Origin: Patescibacteria group bacterium
GTDB taxonomy: Bacteria; Patescibacteriota; Patescibacteriia; Patescibacteriales; WJLG01
Assembly: GCA_041652555.1 (NCBI GenBank)
Contig: JBAZHE010000004.1
Span: 657 to 64,656 of the forward strand
Length of the DNA: 64,000 nt
Direction: 5' to 3'
This document shows positions 2,987-35,432 of the stretch, one piece after another. How positions within the stretch are numbered: the first letter of the stretch is position 1; each line of letters opens with the position of its first letter. The notes below the pieces were generated by a model that was not told the DNA's origin, did not search any database, and worked only from the letters and a program-made list of their open reading frames with translations. The position numbers were made by a program, and so were the translations under genes.

Positions 2987-3047
2987 ATTTTTTAAAATTA
3001 TTTTATTGGTTTATTTTTGATTTAACTTATTCTATGCCCCGAGCTTT

Positions 3048-3097
3048 ACACACCCCGTCTCGGAGTACCGAGCCACCCCTCTTACTAGAGGGGATTT
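3048..3097. repeat. Palindromic ~50-nt element, intergenic copy (second copy lies inside ligA)
   Basis: Blocks ACACACCCCGTCTCG (3048-3062), GCCACCCCTCTT (3072-3083) and CTAGAGGGGATTT (3085-3097) recur in the same order at 33737-33785. Contains the hairpin CCCCTCT-tact-AGAGGGG. Confidence 0.7.
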
Positions 3098-3302: not shown

Positions 3303-3833
3303 TTATTTGCTAATTTTTTTATTTTTTCTGACTATTGACAAAAAATTTTCTTTATTTACTATCTTTTTACCAGTTTTTTGCTCCAATTCCAAGCGCGCAT
3401 TCTTAGCAATTTTTCCGCCCTTTTTTGCTGGAATTTTATTTTCTATTAAACCTTTAGCTTGCATCGTTTCGGCAATCTGACGAGTTGAAAGTTCTGCCAA
3501 GGCGGTAAAAACTAATTCGGCGTCAGACATATGGTCACGCAAATTTTCTGTTTTCAAACTTTTTAAATCTTTATGCTCTTAAACCGTTAAATCGCTCCAT
3601 TCTTGATGAATAATATTCGTCAAAATAGCATATTCATCTTCTTCTTTTACTTCATTATCTTTCCAGTAATCTGTCAGCTTATTCCAATACTTTCTTGCTG
3701 TCTGAAAATCTTTTTGGTCGGTTAAAACAGCGATAATATCCACCACGCTAAAATACCACTTTTCCTGTTTTTCATCCCAAGAACGGCGCACCGGTTGATC
3801 TTCAAAAATTGCCATTTGTTTTTCGTTGGTCAT
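3303..3833 (-). pseudogene. Bro-N / DinD-like (DNA-damage-inducible protein D family) gene interrupted by an in-frame TAA
   Basis: ORFs 3579-3833 and 3303-3557 share one frame and are separated only by TAA at 3579-3581: ...IIHQEWSDLTV*EHKDLKSLKTENLRDHMSDAELVF. The N-terminal part (FEDQPVRRSWDEKQEKWYFSVVDIIAVLT) and C-terminal part (NLRDHM..ELVFT..AKKGGKIAKNARLELEQKTGKK) match my memory of this family. Total length looks shorter than typical members. Confidence 0.55.
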
Positions 3834-32959: not shown

Positions 32960-33258
32960 TTAATCTTGTTCTAGAACTTTTTTCACTTTAATTTGATTCC
33001 CTAAAAGGCCGTTTGGAGATTGGGCAAACGCAGCTTCGCGTTCGTCTTTTGACCACTCCTCTACTTCATCGGCGCGCCAAACATCGAACAGGCCAGTAAC
33101 TTGCGCAGTTGGCTGAACATTAGTAGTATCAACTTCTTTTAATTGATCAATAAAATTTAAAATATTAGAAAGCTGAGGCGTTAGCACGTCGATTTCTTCC
33201 TCGGAAATTCCAGACGGGCAAGCGCCGCGACTTTTTTAACTTCATCTTTAGATAACAT
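32960..33258 (-). pseudogene. gatC: gatC with a 1-nt frameshift (or homopolymer sequencing error)
   Basis: ATG at 33258: MLSKDEVKKVAALARLEFPRKKSTC*. The other frame continues (V)LTPQLSNILNFIDQLKEVDTTNV.... Adding 1 nt near GGAATTTCC (about 33203-33211) gives ...LARLE(I/F)SEEEIDVLTPQLSNIL. The span is 299 nt, one short of 100 codons. Confidence 0.75.
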
Positions 33259-33305: not shown

Positions 33306-35432
33306 TTATTTTATCATTTTAATAAACTCTTCTTCGTTCAAAACTTTAACACCAAGCTTCTGCGCTTTATCAAATTTACTTCCCGCTTCGGCGCCGGTGA
33401 CAACAAAAGAGGTTTTTTTGCTGACGGATTCTGAGACTTCTCCCCCTAATTTTCTTATATTATCTTTTGCTTCGTCCCTTGTCAAACCGGACAAAGAACC
33501 GGTTAAAACAAAGGATTTGCCTGATAATTTTCCGCCACCGGATAAACGTTCTTCGTTTTTAAGCGATACCCTATTTTTTTCCAATTTTTCCAAAATCGCT
33601 AAATTTTTCTCATTATGCCACCAAGAAAAAACACTCTCCGCCACTATCGGGCCAATATCTTTCATATTCTCAATTTCTTCTAGAGATAGGTTGGAAAAAA
33701 AACATAAAACATCTTTAATTTTAAATACGCCAAGCGACACACCCCGTCTCGCTCCGCTCGCCACCCCTCTTTCTAGAGGGGATTTTAAAAATTCTTTGGA
33801 AATTGTGATCGCTGTTTCTTCGCCAACGTGACGAATGCCAAGACCAAAAATAAATCTAGAAATATCAATTTCACGATGAGCATTAATTGATTCAATAATA
33901 TTTTGTGCCTTTTTTTCCGCAAAACGTTCTAAAGGCTTTAAGTCGCCCTCGGTTAAAAAATAAAAATCAGCCACGTCAGACACTAAGCCTTCTTTAAATA
34001 ATTGCTCCACGATTTTTTTGCCCAAACCTTCAATATCTACGGCGTTTTTAGAAGTCCAATGAGTTAAATTGCGCAAACGAACGGCAAAACAATTACGATT
34101 CAAACAACGATAAGCAACTTCTTCACCAACACGCTCCACGTCTCCGCCACAAATCTGACAAGTTTTAGGAACGGATATTTTTTTTTCAATACCAGTGCGT
34201 AATTTCGGTAAAACTTGGACGACTTTTGGAATTACATCGCCAGCACGCTCAATAATTACCGTATCGCCAATCTTCAAATCCAAACGTTCAATCTCATTCA
34301 TATTATGCAAAGTAGCATGTGTTACGGTGATACCTGAAACGTCCACCGGCTCCAACTCCGCCACTGGTGTTAAAATTCCAGTGCGACCAACTTGCCAATT
34401 AACCTTTTTCACTACTGTCGTTGTTTGAATGGCTGGAAATTTAAAAGCCATTATATAGCGCGGACCTTTACCAATAATACCCAAAATATTCCAATCAGCC
34501 AAATAATTTATTTTTACTACTGTACCATCTATTTCAAAAGGTAATTTTTCCCGCGCTTCGCCGATTTCGCGATAAAAAGAAAAGGCCTCTTCTAAATTTT
34601 TACAAACTCGATTTTCTTTAATCGTCTTTAAGCCTAAAAGATTTAAAATTTCTCTTTTCTGACTATGTTTTTCCAGCCCAAAATCACCAATAACTTCATA
34701 AGCATAAAAATCTAATTCTCGTTCGGCCGTAATTTTTGAATCTAGCTGGCGGATTGACCCGGCGGCACCGTTACGTGGGTTAGCCAAGGGCGGTTTGCCT
34801 TCTTTTTGGTATTTTTTATTCAACTTGACAAAAACTTTTTTTGTCATCACTACTTCGCCACGGACAAAAATTTCTTTGGATAAAGATTGAATTATTTTTT
34901 TTGCTTGTTCTGAAGATAAACCAATTTTTTTCAAATCATTTTCTGAAATTTTATTTAATGACAAAGGAATCGCTTCGATAGTTTTTAAATTTTTTGTAAC
35001 ATTTTCACCGATTTGACCGTCACCGCGTGTCGCCCCTTGAACAAAAAGACCATTCTTATATTTTAAACTCATCGCCAATCCATCAGCTTTTAACTCCACA
35101 AAATATTCATATTTTTTATTGAGAATATTGTTATTTCTTTTTTCCCAGTTGCGCATATCCTGTTCATTAAAAGAATCAAAAAGAGAAATCATCGGCACCG
35201 TATGGCGAACTTTTTCAAATTTATCCAAAGGCACCCCACCCACTCTCTGAGTTGGCGAATCAGACGTAACTAATTCCGGATTCTCTTGTTCTAATTTCTG
35301 CAATTCATTTTTCAAGGAATCTAAAGCCGCATCGGGAATCTCCGATTTGTCCAAAACATGATAAGCATAACGATAACGGTTGATTTCCGCACGAAGATTT
35401 TCTATACGCAATTGAATTTGCTGTTTATTCAT
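33306..35432 (-). CDS. ligA: NAD-dependent DNA ligase LigA (with about 20-aa in-frame repeat-derived insertion)
   Basis: Adenylation motif ELKADGLA. OB fold. Zn finger (CQICGGDVERVGEEVAYRCLNRNC). HhH region. BRCT (GKSFVLTGSLSGLTRDEAKDNIRKLGGEVS). Confidence 0.92.
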   Translation of the reverse strand: MNKQQIQLRIENLRAEINRYRYAYHVLDKSEIPDAALDSLKNELQKLEQENPELVTSDSPTQRVGGVPLDKFEKVRHTVPMISLFDSFNEQDMRNWEKRNNNILNKKYEYFVELKADGLAMSLKYKNGLFVQGATRGDGQIGENVTKNLKTIEAIPLSLNKISENDLKKIGLSSEQAKKIIQSLSKEIFVRGEVVMTKKVFVKLNKKYQKEGKPPLANPRNGAAGSIRQLDSKITAERELDFYAYEVIGDFGLEKHSQKREILNLLGLKTIKENRVCKNLEEAFSFYREIGEAREKLPFEIDGTVVKINYLADWNILGIIGKGPRYIMAFKFPAIQTTTVVKKVNWQVGRTGILTPVAELEPVDVSGITVTHATLHNMNEIERLDLKIGDTVIIERAGDVIPKVVQVLPKLRTGIEKKISVPKTCQICGGDVERVGEEVAYRCLNRNCFAVRLRNLTHWTSKNAVDIEGLGKKIVEQLFKEGLVSDVADFYFLTEGDLKPLERFAEKKAQNIIESINAHREIDISRFIFGLGIRHVGEETAITISKEFLKSPLERGVASGARRGVSLGVFKIKDVLCFFSNLSLEEIENMKDIGPIVAESVFSWWHNEKNLAILEKLEKNRVSLKNEERLSGGGKLSGKSFVLTGSLSGLTRDEAKDNIRKLGGEVSESVSKKTSFVVTGAEAGSKFDKAQKLGVKVLNEEEFIKMIK
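33737..33785. repeat. Palindromic ~50-nt element, copy inside the ligA coding sequence
   Basis: Same three blocks as 3048-3097, with hairpin CCCCTCT-ttct-AGAGGGG. Translated in frame as KSPLERGVASGARRGVSLG. Confidence 0.7.

Follow-up and report, generated by a model that had tools for sequence, protein, structure and literature searches.

Short repeats with intrastrand DNA triplex motifs have been known in Escherichia coli since the 1990s under the names BoxC, PIT and TMECO; they fold in vitro and have been linked to genome instability, and no origin, mobility gene or function has been found for them, with no mobility function reported near TMECO (Holder et al. 2015, PMC4666352). The TMECO consensus, CCCTCNCCC-N3-6-GGGNGAGGG-N3-GGGNGAGGG, was verified in vitro to form a purine-motif intrastrand triplex, a structure reported not to form in RNA, and promoter or terminator activity was found to be absent from PIT/BoxC elements (PMC4666352). 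Small palindromic repeats that lie in frame within genes are a separate phenomenon, known among other places in Opitutus terrae, where they occur in an ATP-dependent DNA ligase (PMC3733652). Here we analyse a repeat of about 50 nucleotides (nt) inside ligA, the gene for NAD-dependent DNA ligase, in a 64,000-nt stretch of a Patescibacteria group bacterium (assembly GCA_041652555.1, contig JBAZHE010000004.1, positions 657 to 64,656), hereafter the window. The ligA sequence probably belongs to a selfish triplex-motif repeat that is dispersed across phyla; it would be a solo copy, tolerated in frame, of a family whose autonomous form appears to be a cassette around a DUF559 nuclease gene. In-frame small repeats and triplex-motif repeats were each known already; what is new, as far as the sequences can tell, is a family that spans phyla, appears to be translated inside essential enzymes of the candidate phyla radiation (CPR) and is tied to DUF559 cassettes.

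The repeat is present twice in the window, once in ligA and once in an intergenic position that no long open reading frame (ORF) spans (Table 1). The first-pass annotation had proposed that the two sites share an element of about 50 nt with the hairpin CCCCTCT-N4-AGAGGGG, and they do: the blocks ACACACCCCGTCTCG (15 of 15 nt) and CCACCCCTCTTNCTAGAGGGGATTT (24 of 25) are common to both and enclose a variable segment of 9-10 nt. With up to three mismatches the 25-mer was found at these two window positions only (0 expected from 100 shuffles). A covariance model, R1, built from 16 copies in other genomes, recovered both copies and no other window match above 13 bits, the next full-length match in the 64 kb scoring 8 bits. 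On the ligA sense strand the layout is AANT-CCCCTCT-N2-4-AGAGGGG-TGG-(variable mini-hairpin)-AC-GGGGTGT-G-T. Folding of the G-rich DNA strand gave -13.3 kcal/mol (z = -5.4) for the intergenic copy and -10.2 kcal/mol (z = -2.9) for the ligA copy; these ViennaRNA values describe hairpins only, a triplex being outside the model. When the window was searched for further inserted repeats in the form of GC islands, 69 islands appeared, mostly ordinary coding sequence, and the search was uninformative.

Table 1. Positions in the window of ligA, the two repeat copies and their parts
Feature	Position	Strand	Basis
ligA, NAD-dependent DNA ligase, 708 aa, host gene	33306..35432	-	Pfam domains; E = 1.8e-157 to PDB 2OWO
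Extra 45 nt (15 codons, S551-V565, SPLERGVASGARRGV) relative to empty-site orthologues	33738..33782	-	orthologue comparison
Copy 1, inside ligA	33735..33784	-	covariance model 53.6 bits, E = 2.7e-15, model positions 1-48 of 48
Pyrimidine (Y) arm CCCCTCT of hairpin 1, copy 1	33775..33781	-	sequence; invariant in 145 distinct copies
Purine (R) arm AGAGGGG of hairpin 1, copy 1	33764..33770	-	sequence, folding
Loop 2, copy 1: TGG, decayed mini-hairpin (only GCGGAGC core kept), AC	33746..33763	-	covariance-model alignment
Third-strand block GGGGTGT, copy 1; mirror of R arm, T replacing A	33739..33745	-	sequence
Copy 2, intergenic, both hairpins intact	3046..3096	-	covariance model 56.1 bits, E = 3.9e-16
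Intact hairpin 2 of copy 2, CTCGG-TACT-CCGAG	3059..3072	-	sequence, folding
Third-strand block GGGGTGT, copy 2	3050..3056	-	sequence

The ligA ORF encodes the full NAD-ligase domain set (Pfam) and, as had been read from the sequence, runs through the repeat without a break, reading KSPLERGVASGARRGVSLG. In an alignment with 120 homologues, all of them Patescibacteria-type LigA, the segment is an insertion: it is missing from the nearest relatives, P0001 (76% identity), P0005 and P0007, and also from E. coli LigA (PDB 2OWO), in which residues 3-531 match query residues 5-547 and residues 541-669 match 582-707, leaving 531-541 opposite query residues 547-582. At the DNA level the addition is exactly 45 nt in the window and in the orthologous loci L001 and L003; L125 and L210 are empty sites, and the assembly that contains L125 (CAYNAR01) carries the repeat elsewhere (L094). 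The first-pass annotation had placed the insert between the helix-hairpin-helix (HhH) region and the BRCT domain, a position that the 2OWO alignment shifts to within the HhH domain, ahead of its last HhH motif. In the structural check that it had suggested, AlphaFold2 predicts a loop: at a mean predicted local distance difference test (pLDDT) score of 82.5 for the whole model, helices 538-550 and 572-580 are joined by a low-confidence excursion that contains the insert, with pLDDT below 50 at residues 558-566. The insert is most likely neutral for the enzyme.

About a dozen other LigAs have similar or different GC-rich peptides at the identical position, after F-[LI]-x; P0002, P0014, P0016 and P0022 carry the repeat family there, and P0006, P0015 and P0025 have related peptides. 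In a rough neighbour-joining tree, LigAs with filled and empty sites are interleaved in at least four clades and sisters hold different element variants. Therefore, judging from these sequences, several insertions or replacements at one hot spot seem a more parsimonious history than a single ancient event. A second in-frame hot spot lies near residue 113, between the Ia domain and the adenylation domain, with one copy in L001 (5245-5292) and two tandem related triplex-motif elements in L124 (10334-10400); it is empty in the window's LigA. The HhH site attracts several kinds of repeat at the DNA level. Many of the more distant LigAs, P0036 (L208 3001-5136) and P0040 (L209 3001-5112) among them, have heptanucleotide tandem repeats in their reading frame there, (CAAATTA)n read as ITNYKLQITN and (CAATTTT)n read as FSIFNFQFS, and in another locus (L061) the triplex element itself sits within (GTTATCC)n repeats.

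The repeat is by no means confined to this lineage. A scan of one genome per species with the pattern AGAGGGGTGG-N8-24-ACGGGGTGTG matched at least 119 loci, in hosts with a GC content from 0.32 to 0.71; the hosts among the matches listed include Verrucomicrobiota, Pelosinus and other Bacillota, anammox Planctomycetota, Ignavibacteria, Cloacimonadota, Glassbacteria, Desulfobacterales, Bacteroidota and several CPR lineages. Model R1 gave 229 matches (188 + 41) in 124 loci. The strict pattern matched only 2 of 2.9 million viral contigs in IMG/VR (L206 2165-2197 and L207 2943-2976), and phages do not seem to be the main carriers of the family. The first-pass annotation had named two outcomes that would speak against an inserted element, the same peptide in repeat-free orthologues or a lack of further copies, and neither was observed. 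Its description of a palindromic element lodged in frame in a CPR-like genome stands as regards the insertion, and has to be widened as regards the element, which is more than a palindrome and is not specific to CPR.

Hairpin 1 is invariant in sequence across the copies, and the variability is concentrated in the segment behind it. The ligA orthologue copies have TCCCCTCT-N2-4-AGAGGGG-TGG and ACGGGGTGTG in common and differ in the middle, where each forms its own small hairpin (CTCGCG..CGCGAG in L001, CCGCG..CGCGG in L003). Hairpin 2 shows two-sided changes at 4 of 4 base pairs with 94.7% of the pairs intact, a result reached by none of 500 shuffles and counted in an alignment fitted to the model. 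In 128 of 133 copies the variable segment has a stem of 3 base pairs (bp) or more, which holds for about 27% of shuffles. The variable segment takes 85 distinct forms, and 75 of the 133 loops are GNA triloops closed by C:G, GCGNAGC being a classic and very stable DNA mini-hairpin. A short form lacks hairpin 2 and has a 5-nt loop instead, AGAGGGG-ATTTA-GGGGTGTGT, also written AGTCCCCTCTAATAAGAGGGGATTTAGGGGTGTGT. Inverted dimers are common, with many (-,+) pairs about 20 nt apart in Verrucomicrobiota loci (L007, L015, L052, L059 and L063). Some lineages have composite elements of their own on the one core: in Kuenenia and Anammoxibacter a conserved extension, approximately CACGCTGAATAGATAC, follows GGGGTGTGT after 3-10 nt (L024, L026, L032, L036, L093, L096, L100 and L122), and in Lacunisphaera-type genomes TTTTCACACAGTC follows some copies.

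Several known kinds of element were considered for the repeat and set aside. A classical miniature inverted-repeat transposable element does not fit, as the repeat is asymmetric (AANT-CCCCTCT ... GGGGTGTG-T), without terminal inverted repeats or a target-site duplication signal. An integron attC site was rejected by eye for want of an R''/R' GTTRRRY core, and small self-cleaving ribozymes and CRISPR repeats were rejected by eye only, against their known motifs. The intragenic REP families of O. terrae (PMC3733652) encode peptides unlike that of this element.

The last block of the repeat, GGGGTGT, mirrors the purine arm AGAGGGG except that it has T for A, which would give G.G-C and T.A-T triads. 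Both window copies have the pyrimidine arm, the purine arm and the mirror third block that define the class, and on this sequence criterion the repeat is an intrastrand purine-motif DNA triplex motif. The variants of the purine arm bear this out. For every perfect 7-bp pyrimidine/purine hairpin in all fetched loci, its own mirror block was sought within 55 nt downstream and, as a control, upstream; because every palindromic hairpin is counted on both strands, the ceiling of this count is about 50%. The consensus arm AGAGGGG had its mirror block downstream in 322 of 624 cases (control 30). Where the arm is GGAGGGG, GGGGWGG was found in 17 of 36 (control 1) and the consensus third strand in none; AGAGGAG was followed by GWGGWGW in 7 of 16 (control 0), and AGGAGGG by its mirror block in 8 of 14 (control 1). 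The resulting pairings, GGAGGGG with GGGGTGG, AGAGGAG with GAGGTGT and AGGAGGG with GGGTGGT, amount to a three-way mirror co-variation that is predicted for a triplex and makes no sense in Watson-Crick RNA folding. This co-variation suggests that the repeat may fold into a triplex in vivo.

Insertion into coding sequence is not peculiar to ligA. Model matches inside long ORFs of CPR genomes were found in LigA (at both sites in L001), in a valyl-tRNA synthetase (ValS; L016, assigned by eye from sequence), in a tRNA-guanine transglycosylase (Tgt; L090, where solved TGT structures have no residues opposite the insert), in a MurD-like ligase (two copies in L099) and in a methylpurine glycosylase (MPG; two copies in L006). 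The copies are in sense orientation in LigA, ValS, Tgt and MPG and in antisense orientation in MurD. Survival in coding sequence is explained by the composition of the element, which is G/C-rich and open in most frames.

Clustering of the ORFs up to 2 kb from 133 copies left a single recurrent neighbour that was not a housekeeping gene. It encodes a protein of about 115 amino acids and lies 50-150 nt from the GGGGTGTG end of the repeat in 7-8 loci; no RAYT or transposase cluster was present among these ORFs. Adjacency to a DEAD-box helicase gene in four loci, including the window, was inconsistent in orientation and was judged to be chance. The small protein is a DUF559, Vsr-like PD-(D/E)xK domain (Pfam E = 3e-29 to 4e-31), and its profile matches PDB entry 3HRL (1e-23) and, weakly, the Vsr-like homing endonuclease I-Bth0305I (3R3P, 7e-4). 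The association was confirmed independently in 80 metagenome loci picked by DUF559 homology alone. Model R1 made 190 matches in them, with a repeat within 150 nt of the DUF559 gene in 59 of the 80 loci and on both sides in 32; in 25 of these 32 the copies are inverted with their 3' ends inward. Repeat density was 5.74 per kb near the DUF559 gene, as compared with 0.18 per kb farther away. Typically a gap of 2-50 nt separates the upstream copy from the start codon, and the downstream copy starts 3-25 nt past the stop codon or overlaps it, an architecture kept across phyla though the DUF559 proteins are just 47-62% identical. These inverted repeat copies that bracket small DUF559 genes are new: in the retrieved papers that mention DUF559 we found no link to repeats. 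One of these papers reports DUF559 genes to be over-represented among predicted targets of inversion, as would fit genes with inverted repeats on either side.

A matching pattern exists in E. coli K-12, where the DUF559 gene ycjD has a BoxC/TMECO copy 165 nt downstream and a partial copy overlapping its stop codon. The last ~45 nt of ycjD (ggagacggtgctggagaatattc...ctgaaccg) occur a second time about 100 nt farther on, between the partial and the full BoxC (L211 6330-6470), which suggests a past rearrangement or a decayed second cassette. The BoxC repeat beside ycjD is present at a median of 16 places per genome in 5,426 complete E. coli genomes, 3,378 of which have ycjD. In 60 evenly spaced genomes, BoxC-like places numbered 11-26 (mean 17.9) with ycjD and 1-12 (mean 6.2) without it (Mann-Whitney p = 1.6e-9), a correlation that is confounded by phylogroup.

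We propose the following model. In single-stranded DNA the first two blocks would pair as a hairpin and the last block would lie on the purine arm through reverse-Hoogsteen triads, the variable hairpin serving as a structured linker only. The autonomous form would be a cassette of about 0.45 kb in which a gene for a DUF559 nuclease of about 115 amino acids stands between two inverted copies, their GGGGTGTG ends toward the gene. The nuclease may recognise or cut the folded element, and host repair may then copy elements to new sites; solo copies would be served in trans, in a homing-like or REP/RAYT-like relationship, and it is by analogy with these two systems that we infer the copying step. 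In the LigA HhH domain, one copy would have entered a surface loop that permits insertion; being 45 nt in length and without a stop codon, it would be read as 15 additional residues and tolerated. The same codon position would have been hit repeatedly in sister lineages. In the small genomes of CPR, where intergenic space is scarce, loops of essential proteins may be among the few sites at which copies survive. Taken further, the model would make DUF559/YcjD-type nucleases the missing partner enzymes of triplex-motif repeats, of BoxC/TMECO as well as of the GT-type family described here, in at least a dozen phyla; nucleases and repeats together would then represent a new class of selfish element, recognised at its ends by folded triplex/hairpin DNA and not by a duplex sequence, whose solo copies spread in trans, even into essential CPR proteins. 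This broader proposal we put forward tentatively, as somewhat less than an even chance.

Several observations weigh against the proposed explanation. The DUF559 gene was found neither in the window nor in the LigA-orthologue loci, and a full cassette was seen in one CPR locus only (L091). A lone 115-residue PD-(D/E)xK nuclease cannot carry out strand transfer, and the copying step needs host functions. Flank k-mers of 299 copies showed no outstanding duplication (best z 3.8 over 100 combinations); without a target-site duplication there is no positive signature of insertion, a situation compatible with REP/IS200-like or repair-mediated copying. No near-identical pair of empty and filled sites was found, and mobility is deduced from distribution. 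To these may be added the confounding in E. coli and the fitted alignment behind the hairpin-2 counts, both mentioned above, the restriction of the folding computation to hairpins, and the fact that nucleotides of the ligA copies are far better conserved than the surrounding synonymous sites, which could reflect selection in situ rather than recent insertion.

Of the alternatives, the one that survives best holds that DUF559 is a selfish homing-type endonuclease gene or a passenger that landed, or was retained, between recombination-prone inverted pairs of triplex motifs, while the repeats spread by other means such as replication slippage, template switching or another enzyme. TMECO sites are rearrangement hot spots in E. 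coli and gene-free inverted TMECO pairs exist (PMC4666352); gene-free (+,-) pairs are seen in the present family too, for example in L054 and L101. The profile match to I-Bth0305I and the duplicated 3' gene fragment at ycjD, which suggests local rearrangement, point in the same direction. However, the cassette architecture is very regular and conserved across phyla, and a mere passenger would not predict the higher BoxC numbers in genomes with ycjD. We therefore regard this alternative as unlikely, albeit one to be taken seriously.

Improbable, in our view, is a functional RNA or transcription signal (a terminator, stabiliser or regulatory hairpin) kept for the regulation of ligA or the downstream gatCAB. 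The strength of hairpin 1, the ATTT(T) that follows it on the antisense strand, the conservation of the ligA copies above flanking codons and the compensatory changes in hairpin 2 among three ligA orthologues would all suit such a role. On the other side, a gathering search of the window against Rfam returned only a tRNA, and an Rfam search of five element-bearing loci at E-values up to 1 returned nothing relevant. The intergenic copies show no bias in orientation (17 sense, 19 antisense) or context (9 convergent, 9 divergent), which argues against a terminator or a strand-specific RNA role, and an intrinsic terminator was rejected on this ground; the genic copies also occur in both orientations. 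In addition, the third block co-varies as the mirror and not the complement of the purine arm, purine-motif triplexes reportedly do not form in RNA, loop 2 favours C:G-closed GNA triloops, and the PIT/BoxC elements lack promoter or terminator activity (PMC4666352).

That the segment is an ordinary lineage-specific loop of LigA, evolved at the protein level and resembling the intergenic site by coincidence or local gene conversion, has very little probability left. The site is indeed variable in length throughout Patescibacteria, and even the 'empty' relatives exceed the most compact LigAs in length at this position; yet the same consensus of 45-50 nt recurs in other phyla and the covariance-model E-value is about 1e-15 in the window, by which this explanation is effectively refuted already. 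Sister LigAs also carry different element variants or none, and the other variable inserts at the site are likewise DNA-level repeats of heptanucleotides. Nor is a chimeric assembly or binning join through the repeat credible: although repeats are classic sites of mis-assembly and the neighbouring gatC is apparently frameshifted in a T-run, the reading frame is exactly preserved, LigA aligns collinearly with its orthologues on either side of the insert, a 7.7-kb JGI contig of separate origin (P0009) is 100% identical through the insert, and inserts at the identical site recur in independent JGI, ENA and Logan assemblies (L001/L002, L003/L004).

Some features of the neighbourhood deserve mention in their own right. 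Just downstream of ligA, gatC is apparently frameshifted (33190-33245, minus strand): frame 2 reads MLSKDEVKKVAALARLEF and then a stop, and frame 1 resumes with SEEEIDVLTPQL and continues to a normal C terminus. Its T-run seems one T short (GAATTTCCGAGG as against the expected GAATTTTCCGAGG), through either a real frameshift or a homopolymer assembly error. Immediately upstream of ligA, four related loci have a 23S_rRNA_IVP or bAvd-like four-helix-bundle gene (L001 4463-4840, L003 9599-9964, L124 9536-9913 and L210 2589-2969), and more copies lie close by. The window and L125 lack the gene at this place, and it looks like another patchily distributed small cassette. Near the intergenic repeat copy, two adjoining 84-residue ORFs (3303-3833, minus strand) resemble, by eye, the N- and C-terminal halves of one DinD/RhuM/BRO-type protein and could be a split or decaying gene.

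These results add to the known triplex-motif repeats a sister family that extends from Verrucomicrobiota to Patescibacteria, a reproducible link to DUF559 and a matching pattern in E. coli K-12, and they make an old open question about such repeats directly testable. In CPR, selfish DNA would seem to be routinely translated inside LigA, ValS, Tgt, MurD and MPG, a phenomenon documented earlier chiefly in Rickettsia and in a few REP-rich genomes. This bears on annotation, on structure prediction and on the reading of 'CPR-specific insertions' in proteins, and the hot-spot loop of the LigA HhH domain could be a natural permissive site for engineering.

Among the known systems, the Vsr-like (EDxHD) I-Bth0305I and the DUF559 structure 3HRL share a homologous nuclease domain with the cassette protein, whose gene differs from that of I-Bth0305I in being free-standing rather than lodged in an intron or intein, and in being flanked by structured repeats. 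The Rickettsia palindromic elements (RPEs; Ogata et al. 2000, 2002, via PMC10969869), with which the first-pass annotation had compared the insert, are likewise described as small, structured, stop-free in-frame inserts at surface-compatible positions of unrelated essential genes in a reduced genome; that analogy was apt for the mode of insertion, which extends beyond Rickettsia to O. terrae (PMC3733652). In contrast to the present element of 45-50 nt from other phyla, RPEs measure about 100-150 bp, are restricted to Rickettsia and are simple palindromes of unrelated sequence, for which no triplex mirror block or partner gene is known.

REP/REPIN-RAYT systems (Di Nocera et al. 2013, PMC3733652; Bertels and Rainey 2011, PMC3116915) also consist of short hairpin repeats, single or as inverted dimers, with one small gene between inverted copies and no target-site duplication, and REPs too have in-frame intragenic copies in DNA-repair genes, including the O. 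terrae DNA ligase (PMC3733652). However, the partner here is a PD-(D/E)xK DUF559 nuclease and not a Y1/HUH transposase, no RAYT gene was seen within 2 kb of the 133 copies, and an invariant hairpin with a mirror third block appears to take the place of a GTAG- or CGTC-tagged palindrome. Hairpin 2 does follow GTGG and precede (G)ACG (CGTC on the other strand), bases that also belong to the triplex blocks.

The closest likeness is to BoxC/PIT/TMECO (Hoyne and Maher 2000; Holder et al. 2015, PMC4666352), which have the same pyrimidine arm, purine arm and mirror G-rich third block (class II purine motif), are dispersed in many copies with conserved stems and variable loops, show no bias for strand or gene class, often form inverted pairs and, as BoxC, adjoin the DUF559 gene ycjD in parallel to the cassettes described here. 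The sequences differ (CCCCTCT/AGAGGGG/GGGGTGT as against CCCTCNCCC/GGGNGAGGG/GGGNGAGGG); the element does not fit the TMECO consensus, and model R1 scores about 7 bits on the BoxC beside ycjD, which makes the two different families of the same class. The third strand here has T rather than the A of TMECO opposite A-T pairs, and loop 2 is 14-30 nt long with a covarying mini-hairpin, whereas that of TMECO is 3 nt. BoxC/TMECO belong to Proteobacteria and TMECO is reported to be always intergenic in K-12 and without a mobility gene, whereas the family described here spans many phyla, lies inside essential CPR genes and brackets DUF559.

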